Below, in pieces: positions 30,065-46,515 of a stretch of 64,000 nucleotides of DNA (its first letter is position 1; each line of letters begins with the position of its first letter). The position numbers and the translations under genes are program-made. A model generated the notes under the pieces. The model was not told where the DNA came from. It worked only from the letters and a program-made list of their open reading frames with translations, and did not search any database. Source of the DNA: a virus. Location of the stretch: positions 120,981 to 184,980 of IMG/VR virus record IMGVR_UViG_3300032180_000001; one strand, given 5' to 3'.

Positions 30065-30373
30065 CTATGCTTCCCTCCGGAAGTCGTTAATATCGACAAG
30101 CTGCCTCGTGCCCGATGACGAGCAGTCGGTACACACGAATGTCTTCCCATCGCCATTCTCGCTGATGATCCGGGCGCCGGGAAGAGCGAAATGACCGCAG
30201 GCCAGCCGCTGCAGGCCACCCGTCTCCCGGCACTTAGCGCACGCGAGCTGACCTGTCTTCAGCCGGAGTGCCCGCCGCACCGAACCCGACCCAAGCGACC
30301 GCCCGCAGAACGCGCACCGTTCCCGAGGAGCCGACGGTGCCTGCCGGATCCTGGCTCGACGCGTATTACTCAT
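30065..30373 (-). CDS. Cys-rich hypothetical protein
   Basis: Several CxxC motifs. Confidence 0.4.
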   Translation of the reverse strand: MSNTRRARIRQAPSAPRERCAFCGRSLGSGSVRRALRLKTGQLACAKCRETGGLQRLACGHFALPGARIISENGDGKTFVCTDCSSSGTRQLVDINDFRREA

Positions 30374-31280
30374 GTCGGGTCACCGTCTCCAAAGCCTCGC
30401 GCACCTCATCAGGATAATTCTCGACAACGAACGCGATAAGGTCTGAAACCCGCTGCCCCCGCGGCTGGCGCTGGTTCGTCCACAGTTCCAGGTTCTCCGG
30501 CCGGTTGTCGCTGCGGATACCGTTCTTGTGATGCGGTTCCTCGAACGTGCGCAGCTCGCGCCCGAGCATCTGCTCCATCACTAGCCGATGCTCCAGGATC
30601 GGGCGACCGTTCCGACGCTCGGGTGACATCCTGTAGCCATCGGTAGTGGTATATCCCTGGCTCTTGCGAGGCTGCGCGCCCCACTTGCCTTCCGGATCGC
30701 CGGTAAGCTTCCACCGACTATAGTGCATCCGACACCAACCGCGTGACGTAGCCTGCCTGGGACACTCTTCAATAGAGCAAGACTTACCCTTGTACTTAGA
30801 CTTACGTTCCTGCTGAGGAGTAACTAGCTCCGGTCCCCCAGGATCTCCGGTTCGCCGTACGCGGGCGTAATGCCCCTGACAGTAACCGCGCGCTTTAGCA
30901 GGATTATCACAGCCTCCTACCGAGCACTCCGCACCTGGATTCCAGATCCGAGTAGGTTCTGGCGTCCCCCGTCGCTGCACTCTCATATAATGCGCTTTGC
31001 AGTAACCCTTGGCGTAGGGCTTTTCATCGCAATCATCAGCCTGGCATTCGGAAGCCTGCCGTACATACTCCCGCAACGGATGCAGTGGCTTACCACTCAT
31101 GAACTGCTTATAGTGCTGCGTACAGTAACTACGACTGTAGTACGGCCTGCCGCAATCCTCGTAGTCACAGATTCGATCTGAGGCTGGCATCTCCTGGTGT
31201 GTCCTTCCGTGAGATGGTACGAAGGCAAACGGCATCTGCACCGTGCGCCTCCTAAACTGTACCATCTCACGGACTGACAT
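30366..31280 (-). CDS. HNH homing endonuclease with four C-x4-C...GxCxxHY repeats (true start probably 31238 or 31190)
   Basis: ILEHRLVME...HHKNGIRSDNRPENLELW. Confidence 0.8.
   Translation of the reverse strand: MSVREMVQFRRRTVQMPFAFVPSHGRTHQEMPASDRICDYEDCGRPYYSRSYCTQHYKQFMSGKPLHPLREYVRQASECQADDCDEKPYAKGYCKAHYMRVQRRGTPEPTRIWNPGAECSVGGCDNPAKARGYCQGHYARVRRTGDPGGPELVTPQQERKSKYKGKSCSIEECPRQATSRGWCRMHYSRWKLTGDPEGKWGAQPRKSQGYTTTDGYRMSPERRNGRPILEHRLVMEQMLGRELRTFEEPHHKNGIRSDNRPENLELWTNQRQPRGQRVSDLIAFVVENYPDEVREALETVTRHE
31206..31273. promoter_or_regulatory. 15-bp perfect inverted repeat enclosing the HNH RBS and start
   Basis: TCCGTGAGATGGTAC...GTACCATCTCACGGA, with AGGAGG and GTG in the 38-nt loop. 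Confidence 0.55.
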
Positions 31281-38075: not shown

Positions 38076-38378
38076 TTAAACTTTGCTGTTGTCCTGAGAT
38101 CGCGACCCGGCTGCCGCCTGCCGAACTGACTTTTCGGTCTGCCGAACGTCCCACCCGGTACCATCCCGCCAGCCACGGCGTACCGCTATCGCAAAAATAA
38201 CCAGGCCGTTATGCCACACCCATAGCGCACCGATGACAAGCACAAGCCACACGCGCCCCAATACAAAACCTGGAACCCAGCAAAGCCAGAGAACCACGGC
38301 AAGAACTATCTGCGAAAACCTGACCTTCTTAGCGCGGACCGTAATCTCGCTCAGCGGCAGAAACTTCAGCGTTGTCAT
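38076..38378 (-). CDS. Small membrane protein between terL and portal
   Basis: 100 aa, two hydrophobic segments. Confidence 0.55.
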   Translation of the reverse strand: MTTLKFLPLSEITVRAKKVRFSQIVLAVVLWLCWVPGFVLGRVWLVLVIGALWVWHNGLVIFAIAVRRGWRDGTGWDVRQTEKSVRQAAAGSRSQDNSKV

Positions 38379-40123
38379 ACCGGCATCCTAAGGCAGATGT
38401 TCTCCGCTAAGCGCACAGAGCTGAGAAGGTCGTAGCCGCGCCTCTTCTTCCCGAGCGCCCAGCTAGCCAGGGTAACGGCAACGATCGGCGTAATATCAGC
38501 CTCGCTGTCGCGTCGTGACCAGCCGCGCCCGCCATCTCCGATCTGCCGGGTTTCGGCACTGCCGATCGCAGACCACAGCACAGGTGCCTGCTCCCTGCCG
38601 AGATGAATGACCTGGCGATCACGGATGCCGGTGACAATCTGAGCAAATGCAGCAGCCTCATCAGCACTGCCGGCCGCCAGCACTTCAATCCCTGCCTGCT
38701 CTGCCGCGTCAATCAGCCCGGCCGCCGGTCCGTTCTTCGGAATGCAGACAGCAGCAGGATGGTACTCGCGGTTCAGCTCGACAAGCCGGGGGATGACCCA
38801 GTCCGTACCCTCGCGAGAGCAGCCGCGGGGGATCTCCAGCACCGTTCGATACCTCGTCCTCGGTGGTGACAGAGGAAATTTTTCCTCGAGCTTCGGCTCT
38901 GGCCGTTCCCAGGCCGCTCCGATAGTAGTGACAGTCATCTCCGGGTTGACATCAACCGCGAAGGCCAACGGTCGGACCGCACCACCGGGATCTCCCAGGG
39001 CACACTGACTCCAGGCTTCTTCGGAGACGACCGCCCAGGCTTCCTCTTCGGCCGGCCAGTCGCCAACGCTGAGGATCTCACGGTCAAACTGCGCCATGGT
39101 CATCGTCGCGAATTCCTTGGCCGTCTGCTCATAGCTGATCCTGGTACCCAGGGCAGGATTCGCCTTCGCCCAGGATCGCGGGTCATCCCGGTCATCATGT
39201 CGGTCGCAGACGATGTACCGATTGGTCTTCCGGCCAAGCACCTCATCGCGCGGGCAGGTATCGAGGTGCGGGTCGATCGACCACTCGGCACCCATCAGCG
39301 TCTGATCTTGACGCATGATCCGGCGCCGGACGAGGGCAAGCTGAATGCTATCGTGGTAGCCCGCTGAAGCGGTATAAATGACCTGCGGATTAGGAACCGC
39401 GCGCATGGTCGGCAAAGACGCCCCAACTTGCTCATCGGTCAAAAACATTGCCTCGTCATAGACGACCGTATCAGCTGTGAAACTTCGCCCGGAACCGCGA
39501 GAGCGAGCCAGAAAACGAAGTCGGCTACCAACGCTACGCCGAATCATCTTGCCGCCTTGTCCAAAGATAAGCGTCGGCGCTGGCTTCAACTCGATTGACT
39601 CTTCACCATGACTGGTAATAACCCGGTGAACGCGCCTTCTCAGCTCATCATAAGCGGAGATAGTATCCTGAACCCGGCGGAAATGCTCAGCAGCAGCCTT
39701 GAACTCATGCGCGGTATGAATAATCATCCGCTCGCCGAATACAAAAAGCCCGCCTATCTCCCGAACTTCCAAATTTTGGTTCTTACCGTTCTGCCTGGCA
39801 ACAATTGCAGCGTTCTCAAAAGCAGCCCACCTTCCATCAGGCTTAGTCCCGCAGCATTCGCCGAGCCACCATTCCTGCCATTCATCAAGGCTGTACCCGA
39901 CGGTAGGAGCCCAGTCCAGTAGCTCTTCCGATGCGTGGTTCCCGCAACCTGACTGGTACCCGTTCTGCTTACCGCGCCAGCACGCCCCGCACTTCGGGTC
40001 GATCTCCCGATGCCTGGGGGGAGCGGTCCAGAACCGCGGCATCTGGCTGCCGACTAGCTGACCGTGCAGGATCGACCCGTCGGGCAGGTAAACGTCAGGC
40101 ACCGCGACGAGGTGAACGCTCAT
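38375..40123 (-). CDS. terL: Terminase large subunit
   Basis: Walker A ARQNGKN, Walker B VVYDEA, PQVIYTAS, KANPALG, AFAVDV; possible natural end at CGC T TAG (38407). Confidence 0.92.
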   Translation of the reverse strand: MSVHLVAVPDVYLPDGSILHGQLVGSQMPRFWTAPPRHREIDPKCGACWRGKQNGYQSGCGNHASEELLDWAPTVGYSLDEWQEWWLGECCGTKPDGRWAAFENAAIVARQNGKNQNLEVREIGGLFVFGERMIIHTAHEFKAAAEHFRRVQDTISAYDELRRRVHRVITSHGEESIELKPAPTLIFGQGGKMIRRSVGSRLRFLARSRGSGRSFTADTVVYDEAMFLTDEQVGASLPTMRAVPNPQVIYTASAGYHDSIQLALVRRRIMRQDQTLMGAEWSIDPHLDTCPRDEVLGRKTNRYIVCDRHDDRDDPRSWAKANPALGTRISYEQTAKEFATMTMAQFDREILSVGDWPAEEEAWAVVSEEAWSQCALGDPGGAVRPLAFAVDVNPEMTVTTIGAAWERPEPKLEEKFPLSPPRTRYRTVLEIPRGCSREGTDWVIPRLVELNREYHPAAVCIPKNGPAAGLIDAAEQAGIEVLAAGSADEAAAFAQIVTGIRDRQVIHLGREQAPVLWSAIGSAETRQIGDGGRGWSRRDSEADITPIVAVTLASWALGKKRRGYDLLSSVRLAENICLRMPV

Positions 40124-40373
40124 GACTCAGCCCAGGCACTCCTTGTCCGAAGGTTGCCTGGCTCCGGTTCCGAGAGGAACGGCCGCAGGATAACGCTAGT
40201 TTAAACCCCATCAAGGCACGAGCCTCATCGATGGTCATCATCCCCCGGTTAATCTTAACCATAATCCGTGCCAGTGCTCGGCCGAATTCCTGGTCCGGCT
40301 CGGGCAGCTCGCCGCGTCGCACGGTCCCATCGGGCAGAAAGACATCCGGTACGACAACAAGATGCGCAGCCAT
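40095..40373 (-). CDS. TerL-leader cassette 1 (ends at 40127 if +1 shifted at TTA 40193)
   Basis: Starts MAAHLVVVPDVFLPDGTVRRGE. Confidence 0.55.
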   Translation of the reverse strand: MAAHLVVVPDVFLPDGTVRRGELPEPDQEFGRALARIMVKINRGMMTIDEARALMGFKLALSCGRSSRNRSQATFGQGVPGLSHERSPRRGA

Positions 40374-40376
40374 GGC

Positions 40377-40652
40377 TCAGACCCCGTTGCCACTAATAAG
40401 ACTGACCTGGTTCGTCCGGCAGACCGGCATGCCCACAAGAGCATCCAGATACAGGGACCTCCGGAAAGACGAATCTGAAAACTGTGAACTCATGAAATTA
40501 AACGGAAGGGGCGCGGAAAGGAAGCCCGGAATGATCCCGGCTGTCAGGGCAGGCTCATATGTGTACTCGCCACCGCCCCCGCCCGCAGGCAGCTCGCCAC
40601 GTCGCACAGTCCCATCGGGCAGAAAGACATCCGGTACGGCAACAAGCCTCAT
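40377..40652 (-). CDS. TerL-leader cassette 2
   Basis: Starts MRLVAVPDVFLPDGTVRRGE. Confidence 0.55.
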   Translation of the reverse strand: MRLVAVPDVFLPDGTVRRGELPAGGGGGEYTYEPALTAGIIPGFLSAPLPFNFMSSQFSDSSFRRSLYLDALVGMPVCRTNQVSLISGNGV

Positions 40653-40831
40653 GACCATTGTTCCTCGCTGAGCAGAAGAATCTGAGCCTCATGATAAGTA
40701 ATCCACCCATAACTGAGTGCTGTCTTAACTTGCCTTATACGCCGCTCCCTGCTCGTCTCAGGTGGCTTCCCGCGCCGCACAGACCCATCCGGCAGGAAGA
40801 CATCGGGCACAGCGACAAGACGAATGGTCAT
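40649..40831 (-). CDS. TerL-leader cassette 3
   Basis: Starts MTIRLVAVPDVFLPDGSVRRGK; ATGA coupling. Confidence 0.55.
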   Translation of the reverse strand: MTIRLVAVPDVFLPDGSVRRGKPPETSRERRIRQVKTALSYGWITYHEAQILLLSEEQWS

Positions 40832-41058
40832 GCCAGATCACTCATCTGGGTCTTGAGTTTTTCCATGATCGCAGCCTGGCTTTTCAGTGTCTGTTGCAGC
40901 TTGTCCGCAACCTCCGTTACCGCCGCAATAGCCATGATGATCTGACACATCTGAGGTACCCGATGCTTTCGCTGCTCCAGCCAGTCGGCCAGATCACCAC
41001 GCCGCGCTGTGCCATCGGGCAGGAAAACATCGGGTACGGCAACGAGGCGAACGGTCAT
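40828..41058 (-). CDS. TerL-leader cassette 4
   Basis: Starts MTVRLVAVPDVFLPDGTARRGD; ATGA coupling. Confidence 0.55.
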   Translation of the reverse strand: MTVRLVAVPDVFLPDGTARRGDLADWLEQRKHRVPQMCQIIMAIAAVTEVADKLQQTLKSQAAIMEKLKTQMSDLA

Positions 41059-41240
41059 AACTCTCTTCGCCCCTTGCTGATCCGAAATGTCGGCTCAAAG
41101 CCAGCCTCAACGAGCAAATTCTTGAAGACAGCCAGTCTCCCGAGCCGATGTTTCCACTTGTAAGGCAACGCCTGCTCCCCATGCAAAACGGTACCGTCGG
41201 GCAGGAAAACATCGGGTACGACAACGAGGTGAACGGTCAC
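41055..41240 (-). CDS. TerL-leader cassette 5
   Basis: Starts MTVHLVVVPDVFLPDGTVLHGE; GTGA overlap with the terS stop. Confidence 0.55.
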   Translation of the reverse strand: MTVHLVVVPDVFLPDGTVLHGEQALPYKWKHRLGRLAVFKNLLVEAGFEPTFRISKGRREL

Positions 41241-41524
41241 TGCGACGCTGCCCCCGCAAGACGCTTCTCCCGCCGCGCCCGGATCTCATCTGTCTGATCG
41301 CCCTTCACCTCGCCAGGCGCCATCTTCCGAAGCTGGTCGAGAGACAACCGGACCTCCCGAGCGAACCCGGCCGCATCACGCGGAGCGAGACCGCCTTCAT
41401 CCAGGATCCTGGCAGCATGGAGTGCTACAGCGGCTACTCCGCCGCTTCGCATCTTCACCGGCAGCTCCAGCAGATCGGAGAGTACCGCCGTCTCGATCGG
41501 TCCGCAGTACTTAGAAGTTGTCAT
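41237..41524 (-). CDS. Probable terminase small subunit
   Basis: 95 aa, helical, ends DEIRARREKR; lies upstream of terL. Confidence 0.6.
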   Translation of the reverse strand: MTTSKYCGPIETAVLSDLLELPVKMRSGGVAAVALHAARILDEGGLAPRDAAGFAREVRLSLDQLRKMAPGEVKGDQTDEIRARREKRLAGAASQ

Positions 41525-41648: not shown

Positions 41649-41855
41649 ATGACCCTCGTAACTATCCGGATTCTCTGGATGGACGACAAGAAAACCACTC
41701 TGAAGGATGTCACCACCAGCGTGCGCGAAGGCGTCCTGCACGTCCATCGGTACCGTGACAATAGCATCATCCACGAGTGGCACCTCCCCATCGCCAACAT
41801 CCGGTGGTGGACACCTGTACGAAACGGCGATCCGGAGCCTACCCTAGAGACATAA
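41649..41855 (+). CDS. Hypothetical protein
   Basis: 68 aa; ends HLPIANIRWW... Confidence 0.5.
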   Translation: MTLVTIRILWMDDKKTTLKDVTTSVREGVLHVHRYRDNSIIHEWHLPIANIRWWTPVRNGDPEPTLET

Positions 41856-41977
41856 AGAGCTACTGCCATGCCTGCCATACCTGGGCTTCACTCGACCTCG
41901 CCTGGATGTGCTCACCGTGCTCCGCCGGCTGGTACGCCCGGCCCCGTCGCTCTGCCCTACTGATGGAAGAGTCACTC

Positions 41978-42691
41978 ATGCCCTTGCTCCTCGACGGCTG
42001 CTGTGGTGCAGGAGGTGCCGCACGGGGGTACACCGAGGCCGGATTTGAAGTCTGGGGTGTCGACAGCAACCCGCGGCTCGAACGGGACTACCTCGCCTCC
42101 GGTGCCACCCGGTTCTTCTGCGCAGACATCCTCGAAGTCCTGGAAGACCCGTTCTTCCTTCGCAGCTTCGACCTCGTCCACGTAAGCCCGCCTTGCCAGG
42201 GCTACTCAAAAATGTCAAATTGCCGACCGGGACTCGCTGACAGGTACCAGAAACTGATCAGCCCAGTACGCGACCGGCTGGAAGCAAGCGGCAAGCCCTT
42301 CGTCATCGAGAACGTCTCCGGTGCCCGCCCGTGGCTTCGCGATCCGGTAACGCTGTGCGGGGAGATGTTCGGCCGCCGGGTCTACCGGCACCGGCTGTTC
42401 GAGCCCGGCGGAGGACTCACGCTGTCAGCGCCTGTGCCCGGACAACTAAGACAGCTCGCTGAAAAGCAACCTAACAGGGAATGCGGCTGGGTGCACCCCG
42501 TAGCGGCGGCGAAGGCCGGGCACTGGCGGCCAGGCGCGTACGTATCGGTAAGCGGACACGAAAGGAAAGAACCCGTCCGCGAAGCGATGGCTATTGACTG
42601 GATGAGCAATCGGGAAGACATCAAGGAAGCAATCCCCCCATACATGAGCAACTTTCTAGGACTTCAAGTACTAGAACAACTAACAGCATAG
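41978..42691 (+). CDS. C5-cytosine DNA methyltransferase (copy 1)
   Basis: DGCCGAGG, SPPCQ, IENV, RHRLFE. Confidence 0.8.
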   Translation: MPLLLDGCCGAGGAARGYTEAGFEVWGVDSNPRLERDYLASGATRFFCADILEVLEDPFFLRSFDLVHVSPPCQGYSKMSNCRPGLADRYQKLISPVRDRLEASGKPFVIENVSGARPWLRDPVTLCGEMFGRRVYRHRLFEPGGGLTLSAPVPGQLRQLAEKQPNRECGWVHPVAAAKAGHWRPGAYVSVSGHERKEPVREAMAIDWMSNREDIKEAIPPYMSNFLGLQVLEQLTA

Positions 42692-42702
42692 GAGTTAACC
42701 AG

Positions 42703-43165
42703 ATGATGCGAGACGTCCAGATGGAACTAGGGCGTGCTATCAGATTTATTGACGGCGCTCCCGACATTACCGGACTGCCTTGCGATAAAATAGAATCGGA
42801 AGAAGCGGGGGAGTACATGCGCCGCTATCATCTAGAATTTTCTCGGGACCGCTGCATCCGCTTCCATCACATACTAACCTCTGACCCCGAGATTGACCTG
42901 CATGATCATCCTTGGGATTTTGCATCAGTCATGCTAGCTGGTTCCTACGTCGAAATTACCCCTGACGGGCCGGTAACGTACGAGGCTCCGTGCGTCATCA
43001 CCCGGACAGCCAGGCAGCTGCACCGCCTAGTGCTAGCCGAACCTGTGTGGACCTACGTCATCTGCGGCAAGGTTCAACGCAAATGGGGTTTTGCTACTGA
43101 CCATGGGTGGGTGCCCTGGGATCAGCACGGGAATACCCGCGACACCAGCTCCTGCGGAAACTTAA
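42703..43165 (+). CDS. Cupin-like protein (HDHPW motif); fused to the next ORF via TTA in the zero frame
   Basis: LHDHPWDF...GSYVE...HRLVL...RKWGF; +1-frame TAA at 43163..43165. Confidence 0.55.
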
Positions 43166-43353
43166 TGCACCTTACCGTACGAGAAAAAGCCCTCATCGCT
43201 CATTCTCTCCGGGCGACCGCCGCAAACCTTGACCAAGAAGCCAGATCACATAGATTCAGGCACGGTCGGTGGGCAGAACACCGTACGGCTCTTCACGAAG
43301 AAGCACACGAACTGCGCGAGCTAGCCGAAAGATTCGAAAACGGAAAACCGTAA
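43165..43353 (+). CDS. Small helical protein (TAATG-coupled; in frame with the cupin as sequenced)
   Basis: MHLTVREKALIAHSLR..., 62 aa. Confidence 0.45.
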   Translation: MHLTVREKALIAHSLRATAANLDQEARSHRFRHGRWAEHRTALHEEAHELRELAERFENGKP

Positions 43354-45995: not shown

Positions 45996-46261
45996 CCGAG
46001 CACCTCCGCCCGAAACGGATCGCCTGGATCCCACCCGCAATGCCGTGCCATCATCAGATCGTACCGTTCCTGGAACTTCTGGTTCCTCACATGTGCCTGC
46101 CGCGCGGGGCACCCGACCCCCTCACAATGCCACCAGCCTGCCGCCACGGCCTCCGTAGTCTGCGCTACAGCGATCAGCCTGTCCCGGGTCCTTGGTGAGA
46201 TGTCCTGCGCAGCTTTCTCGACGATCCGCAGCAAGTCGGCCCTGCTGATAGTAAAGCTCAT
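45992..46261 (-). CDS. Hypothetical protein
   Basis: 89 aa, ATGA coupling. Confidence 0.45.
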   Translation of the reverse strand: MSFTISRADLLRIVEKAAQDISPRTRDRLIAVAQTTEAVAAGWWHCEGVGCPARQAHVRNQKFQERYDLMMARHCGWDPGDPFRAEVLG

Positions 46262-46515
46262 GTCCCCGGCTGCCCTCTCCGCACGGTTCCGTCAGGCAGG
46301 ATAACATCCGGAACGACGACGAGACGAGGCTGACCCAGCAGCCAAACTTTCTCCAGCGAGAAAATCTTCCGGATAAGAATATCTCCCTGTGAATCGTCCC
46401 ACTCATCAGCAGTAACAATATAGCTCGATCCCAGCGGGGGAGGCTCGGTATGCCATTCCTCGATATACCGAAAGCCTGATGCTTGCACCAAAACCCTGGA
46501 AACTACCTCACTCAT
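46258..46515 (-). CDS. Hypothetical protein ending in a TerL-leader copy
   Basis: C-terminus RLVVVPDVILPDGTVRRGQPGT. Confidence 0.5.
   Translation of the reverse strand: MSEVVSRVLVQASGFRYIEEWHTEPPPLGSSYIVTADEWDDSQGDILIRKIFSLEKVWLLGQPRLVVVPDVILPDGTVRRGQPGT

Follow-up and report, generated by a model that had tools for sequence, protein, structure and literature searches.

A large uncultured soil phage is represented by a 184,980-bp virus record that is rated 99% complete, of which the final 64 kb (IMG/VR record IMGVR_UViG_3300032180_000001, positions 120,981 to 184,980; hereafter the window) are considered here. Between its putative gene for the small terminase subunit (terS) and its gene for the large subunit (terL), this phage carries five small genes on the minus strand, m1 to m5, and the product of each begins with a leader of about 22 residues that also opens TerL. 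We show here that these mini-genes are genuine, as judged by their conservation and the selection acting on them, and confirm that the leader peptide is under purifying selection. Our preferred reading, held tentatively and at a little less than an even chance, is that the leader forms a hairpin interaction module shared with TerL, through which the mini-proteins would meet the partner of TerL and tune how terminase meets the procapsid.

The leader occurs in six diverged copies on the minus strand between 40052 and 41240, one in TerL and one in each of m1 to m5. A repeat search returned six copies of a 79-nt unit that were 61–82% identical to the reference copy and spaced 173–285 nt apart. A degenerate pattern for the VPDV(F/Y)LPDG core matched seven times in the window and not at all in 100 shuffles. 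TerL and the five open reading frames upstream begin as quoted in an earlier note on this DNA. The seventh copy is found at the C-terminus of an 85-aa open reading frame (46258..46515, minus strand), 5 kb away from the array; it is of the mini-gene type with an R-R-G ending, and the whole 185-kb genome contains no leader copies beyond these seven. The earlier note had taken synonymous variation among the leaders as a sign of selection on the peptide, and the substitution pattern agrees: among the seven copies, the numbers of variable columns at codon positions 1, 2 and 3 were 5, 5 and 15 of 16 each (Fisher p = 4e-5). Pairwise synonymous divergence (dS) ranged from 0.4 to saturated, with the m4/m5 pair (0.15) as the exception, and nonsynonymous divergence (dN) was well below it, at 0.03–0.33 over all seven copies and 0.03–0.15 among m1 to m5. 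Saturated dS combined with low dN indicates that the leader copies are old and have been conserved as a peptide.

The locus was also compared with about 100 related terL loci taken from viral and soil metagenome contigs (designated L followed by a number). In one diverged relative, L111, the TerL N-terminus is 78% identical to that of the window, with a dS of about 0.8. Between the window and L111, the ratio of nonsynonymous to synonymous differences (pN/pS) was 0.11–0.35 for the mini-gene leaders and 0.56–0.83 for the tails that follow them; the leader is thus the most constrained part of the mini-genes. Moreover, a T-V-(R/Q)-R-G ending recurs in mini-gene leaders of different phages, and the TerL leaders end differently, which argues that the mini-gene leaders constitute a separate paralogous lineage and are not fresh local copies of the TerL leader. 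The mini-gene leaders are therefore not simply copies of the terL leader, as the earlier note had described them, but have had a descent of their own. The exception is m1, whose leader has a TerL-like ending (LHG).

All five mini-genes are chained within the terminase operon. The putative terS (95 aa, 41237..41524) is followed by m1 (61 aa with a GTG start, 41055..41240), m2 (76 aa, 40828..41058), m3 (60 aa, 40649..40831), m4 (91 aa when read from its second ATG, 40377..40652, within an open reading frame that opens at 40658), m5 (92 aa, 40095..40373) and terL (582 aa, 38375..40123, with the leader as residues 1–24 at 40052-40123), all on the minus strand. The stop codon of terS overlaps the start of m1 in a GTGA, ATGA overlaps join m1 to m2 and m2 to m3, the m3/m4 junction is likewise ATGA if m4 starts at the second ATG (40652), and m4 and m5 are separated by a 3-nt gap. 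This is largely the chaining described in the earlier note, with the m5/terL junction corrected to an overlap of 29 nt. Since the overlapping stop and start codons chain the mini-genes to both terS and terL, their products are probably made together with the terminase, and their translation is probably coupled. A search of 4.1 kb for promoter and terminator signals gave one promoter-like and four terminator-like sites, not above the level in shuffled sequences.

By codon usage, the annotated frame is the best of the six for each of the five tails, with scores inside the span seen for real genes. The log-likelihood ratio per codon was 0.34 for the tail of m2 and 0.20 for that of m4, and weak for m1 (0.04), though still best in its own frame. 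The codon usage of the last 32 codons of m5 is non-coding-like, and its product accordingly divides into a conserved unit (residues 1–60) and a run-on (residues 61–92). The run-on (40098-40193, minus strand) extends into terL in a frame other than that of TerL; a slippery site was not noticed, and no dedicated frameshift test was made. m1 was missed by the public gene caller; its similarity to TerL possibly extends to about residue 32, and no homologue was found for its tail. An assembly collapse of several terL starts, which the earlier note had named as a way in which the array might prove spurious, was rejected. It is unlikely because the copies are diverged, because a Logan contig (run SRR9648402, from another public assembly collection) matches the window in gene sizes (95/76/60/91/92/582 aa), and because L111, itself diverged, keeps the local gene order.

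That order reads, in L111, coiled-coil unit, A-like unit, B, C, B and terL, and in the window m1, m2, m3 (family B), m4 (family C), m5 (family B) and terL, so that the L111 array corresponds to the series from m2 through m3, m4 and m5 to terL. The leader of m2 is followed by a helical coiled-coil-like tail, and its counterpart, by position and by an R-G-D-L start, is the first gene of the L111 array (L111:6-302, 37% identity). m3 combines the leader with a helix and a G-x-I-T-x-x-E-A motif that is SHOCT-like, and is 54% identical to L111:514-711. In m4 the leader precedes a run of glycines and an E-Y-x-x-E-P motif, and its homologue in L111, P0019, is 51% identical over 69 aligned residues. 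m3 and m5 are themselves 45% identical over 55 aa. The tails had been described earlier as unrelated to one another, which these homologies and the recurrence of the same families in other contigs contradict.

Family B is the most widely traced of the tails. A profile built from m5, m3 and an L009 homologue was searched against 1.84 billion representatives and recovered more small leader-bearing proteins of 54–133 aa; m3, which had helped to build the profile, scored E 3e-26. In the fetched loci, ten out of ten distinct B-type tails come after a leader, and in several contigs a B unit lies immediately upstream of terL, and we infer that family B, usually placed directly before terL, is the core member of the array. 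The profile also matched SHOCT-repeat proteins (such as P0012, E 8.5e-7, four stretches) and, in four portals, regions C-terminal to the Phage_portal domain. Family B members gave no hit to Pfam SHOCT (PF09851) at E <= 1, let alone at the gathering score, and two of them matched Pfam Phage_portal at E 0.019-0.099. An origin of the B tail in the clade's own portal was considered but did not reach significance and is kept as a lead only. Searches of the mini-proteins against Pfam and PHROG returned no significant family. Word-index protein searches with m5(1-40) and m2 gave self-matches only, by a method that missed the window's own paralogues too, and so carry little weight.

In relatives, some tails have been borrowed from head proteins, namely the N-terminus of the capsid-protein delta domain, a segment of the portal, and a SHOCT-like motif that portal C-terminal regions also have. 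Family A (L011, L012, L092, L106, L118) consists of the leader followed by a copy of the capsid protein N-terminus (the N-terminus of the HK97-type delta domain). Its tail aligned with residues 7–61 of the window's capsid protein over 55 columns (hhalign probability 97.3%, E 1.9e-11), and tblastn gave the similarity at E 1e-8. No capsid-derived unit was found in the window or in the whole genome. In L009, a 56-aa protein joins a divergent leader to portal residues 313–347 (BLASTP E 1e-10), and P0010 holds the portal N-terminal motif G-G-V-P-W-R-P-W. Leaderless copies of the first ~55 residues of the capsid protein were also seen just downstream of terL in three loci (L013:5770-5931; L065:2094-2258; L066:2437-2613).

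The leader and its arrays are characteristic of one TerL clade. TerLs at >=50% identity to that of the window mostly carry the N-terminal leader, and they represent uncultured, actinophage-like soil phages. In relatives at 38–40% identity, including a Streptomyces genome contig, terS abuts the TerL core and the leader is absent. GTDB genomes yielded only two distant TerL relatives, neither with a leader. Terminases of cultured actinophages are 28–35% identical, with matches that start at query residue 17 or later and so miss most of the leader, and a DNA search of cultured phages gave no match. Leader-tagged mini-genes were found in at least 10 other contigs (including L009, L011, L012, L092, L106, L111, L112, L115, L117 and L118), in line with the earlier suggestion that arrays with variable cassettes should be sought in other phages. 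Their arrangement varies: in L118/L119, TerL is accompanied by three leader units, of which one has its leader at the C-terminus, and L117 has a single leader unit upstream of terS. In L118, the small protein with the C-terminal leader (L118:2445-2711) is encoded immediately behind terS, and its gene overlaps the leader-headed gene that follows; it may be compared with the 46258-46515 frame of the window. Between terS and TerL residue 21 there are as few as 63 nt in L017, where the leader alone lies between them with an ATGA overlap, and as many as about 3500 nt elsewhere, which marks the junction as a hypervariable insertion hotspot. A leader-like stretch with an R-R-G-Q-P-P ending of the mini-gene type is also inserted inside the nuclease half of TerL in L013, L014, L015 and L032 (hidden Markov model E 7e-4), at residues 416–435 of the TerL of L013 (gene L013:3986-5743). 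As far as this resemblance goes, the leader module may be portable to internal sites.

How units come and go is illustrated by L112 and L114, from sister samples, which are 100% identical except for one 210-bp unit comprising a tail and a leader. The two leader copies in which the junction falls are 96% identical to each other. A difference of one unit with its junction in the leader indicates gain or loss by recombination between leaders, and judged by its sequence the pattern is the expected product of unequal homologous recombination, although there is a slight chance that the difference is an assembly error. This agrees with the description of the terS/terL junction in the earlier note as a cassette-like array. 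In L114 the loss of an array unit has left a B unit fused in frame to TerL (L114:1181-1984, P0005). P0005 could represent a naturally occurring B-TerL fusion; alternatively, an internal methionine could be the start of TerL. If read as a fusion, P0005 suggests that B tethered to TerL is tolerated.

Taken as a whole, the mini-genes would be small late genes that are conserved as a set within the terminase operon and whose products each combine an N-terminal beta-hairpin module of ~22 residues, paralogous to the N-terminal extension of TerL, with a short, fast-evolving and mostly helical tail. The shared hairpin would dock TerL and the mini-proteins onto one common partner, which could be TerS, the portal, the capsid protein or TerL itself, and the mini-proteins might then act as adaptors or competitors that tune how terminase meets the procapsid. 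A docking tag, and packaging modulators, competitors or decoys, had already been proposed in the earlier note, and they are hypotheses here too. With regard to structure, an AlphaFold2 model of m5 residues 1–60 had a mean predicted local distance difference test score (pLDDT) of 79.9, with a beta-hairpin at residues 10–12/18–20 and helices at 28–42 and 48–54, and is helix-turn-helix-like. A fold search with this model against PDB and BFVD gave nothing at E <= 0.001, and the sole match of the leader profile among PDB sequences was a generic L-P-D-G-T-V beta-turn motif. TerL matched phrog_9 (PHROG; E 7.1e-60) over residues 21–561, leaving the leader outside the matched region. Full TerL was modelled poorly from a 22-sequence alignment (mean pLDDT 54.8), so that the packing of the leader on the core was unreadable, and complex prediction for the putative TerS with TerL residues 1–60 scored 0.00, which counts neither way.

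Several observations weigh against this docking role. m1 is weakly supported as a gene, m1 and m2 have no homologues outside L111, and no binding partner was found. In some members of the clade TerL has no leader or a degenerate one (L018, L075, L077), so the leader is not essential for packaging. The alignment of the B tail with the clade's own portal alignment, on portal residues 339–351, reached only E 0.13 by hhalign. Finally, the tails are near-neutral in places, with pN/pS up to 0.83 and saturated synonymous sites, and near-neutral tails fit proteins used in conflict, or weakly useful ones, as well as they fit assembly factors.

A role in conflict would mean that the mini-proteins mimic pieces of TerL, the capsid protein and the portal of the phage itself, either to decoy host sensors of these proteins or, as dominant-negative poisons, to disrupt assembly by co-infecting relatives or satellites. 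Fast-evolving tails next to a conserved tag, the turnover of units with array content varying among relatives, tails copied from the capsid protein N-terminus and portal segments, and the position in a hypervariable hotspot are all as such a role would have it. However, the known Avs-type terminase and portal sensors recognise whole folds, which fragments of 30–55 aa are hardly able to imitate; no defence or anti-defence family was matched (PADLOC was not run on the mini-proteins), and the window itself is without a capsid-derived unit. We therefore consider such mimicry unlikely, while granting it real weight, and are equally hesitant about the form in which the array is a recombining library of micro-mimics of the phage's own morphogenetic proteins (the TerL N-terminus, the N-terminus of the capsid delta domain, and portal crown or SHOCT-like segments), carried on one docking hairpin and used in conflicts. 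The resemblance of tails to the capsid delta domain and to portal parts could also be understood in terms of cargo, since both the delta domain of the capsid protein and the crown of the portal point into the procapsid: either the shared N-terminal peptide or the delta-domain-like or portal-like tails would target the small proteins into the procapsid for encapsidation or injection. The layout, diverse small proteins sharing only a targeting sequence, is formally like that of the T4 internal proteins (PMC3012670). Yet TerL bears the same leader and works outside the capsid, the genes sit in the terminase operon and not among scaffold or core genes, and we found neither sequence similarity to the T4 targeting sequence nor evidence of protease cleavage, which makes a cargo function quite improbable.

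The array might instead be largely a functionless by-product of unequal recombination at the conserved 5' end of terL, which would leave stubs of the leader joined to any sequence that comes next; the synonymous-only differences would in that case stem from the divergence of functional TerL leaders in donor phages, or from gene conversion by TerL. Recombination within leaders is indeed seen (L112/L114), TerL itself contains in-frame partial leader duplications in L008/L011, L009 and L016, the m5 run-on is non-coding-like and the m2-type tail is near neutral. Against this stand the cross-phage signature that mini-gene leaders carry, unlike those of TerL, the repeated occurrence of families A, B and C, with their tail motifs conserved, in many contigs, the gene order kept in L111 despite saturated dS, and the gene-like codon usage of the tails, and we judge the by-product explanation to be improbable. 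Lastly, six repeats within 1.2 kb could be a DNA-level element, that is, terminase binding sites in a pac or cos-like array or the sites of another regulator, and repeated TerS sites near terminase genes are known in other phages. However, conservation resides at codon positions 1 and 2 and position 3 is nearly saturated, which is the signature of a peptide and not of a DNA site, and as DNA the copies are only 61–82% identical; we give this explanation hardly any credence.

Literature searches found no described system like the array, as the earlier note had supposed, and those on terminase N-terminal duplications and on capsid delta-domain paralogues or decoys found nothing relevant. MicroProteins, a eukaryotic concept, consist of one interaction module of a larger protein and regulate that protein by competition. 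The mini-proteins are similar in containing hardly more than a module copied from a larger protein (the TerL N-terminus, or in relatives also the N-terminus of the capsid protein or a segment of the portal); they differ in forming tandem arrays in a phage operon, and competition is hypothetical here. Family B resembles SHOCT (PF09851) through the profile matches to SHOCT-repeat proteins, but differs in that no member reaches the Pfam threshold. T4 internal proteins are diverse, fast-evolving small proteins that share a short conserved N-terminal capsid targeting sequence and are encoded at a variable locus (PMC3012670). The array likewise encodes diverse small proteins with one shared N-terminal peptide at a variable locus, but here the peptide is a predicted beta-hairpin of ~22 residues shared with the essential TerL, and the genes lie between terS and terL. 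In the PeSL cassettes of T4-type hyperplastic regions, short repeats flank non-core genes and recombination adds or removes modules, the repeats being non-coding units of a promoter and a stem-loop terminator (PMC2839356). Modules are gained and lost by recombination at repeats here as well (L112 vs L114, with flanks 100% identical), but in this array each gene's own translated 5' end serves as the repeat, its conservation is that of a peptide, and there is no promoter or terminator signal above chance. Thus the array lacks the tested defining features of T4 internal proteins, and with PeSLs it has in common recombination but not a non-coding repeat.

Here the N-terminus of an essential packaging enzyme has come to serve as a transferable module at the head of a family of small proteins, and certain members of this family add pieces of capsid protein or portal. 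Should the leader act as a docking peptide, it would indicate a new regulatory layer at the contact of terminase and procapsid and would offer a natural tag for recruiting proteins there; if the mini-proteins are conflict mimics, they would represent a new kind of phage counter-measure. Either way, the locus shows how new phage genes can be seeded, by duplication of the translated 5' end of an essential neighbour followed by shuffling of the units through recombination between these ends.

With regard to the genes around the array, the name terS for the 95-aa gene holds by its conserved position, directly upstream of terL and kept in relatives at 39–67% identity, but not by family, as sequence searches of Pfam, PHROGs, NCBIfam and PDB gave no match. 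Terminase_6 is carried by 11% of the members of an Atlas neighbour cluster, which is a weak lead only. On the opposite strand just upstream of terS (41777-43353, plus strand) lie genes for a DNA methyltransferase (phrog_363) and a cysteine-dioxygenase-like protein (phrog_4786), and a methyltransferase occupies the equivalent position in L006 and L118. Downstream of terL follow genes for a portal, a protease and an HK97-type capsid protein, with an HNH endonuclease gene (30366-31280, minus strand) just downstream of the capsid gene. A predicted membrane protein of ~100 aa (38079-38378, minus strand) overlaps the terL stop, and look-alikes come after terL in L112 (95 aa) and L115 (82 aa). In several relatives the TerL or portal genes are far longer (for example, 983 aa for the TerL of L085), which suggests the presence of inteins.

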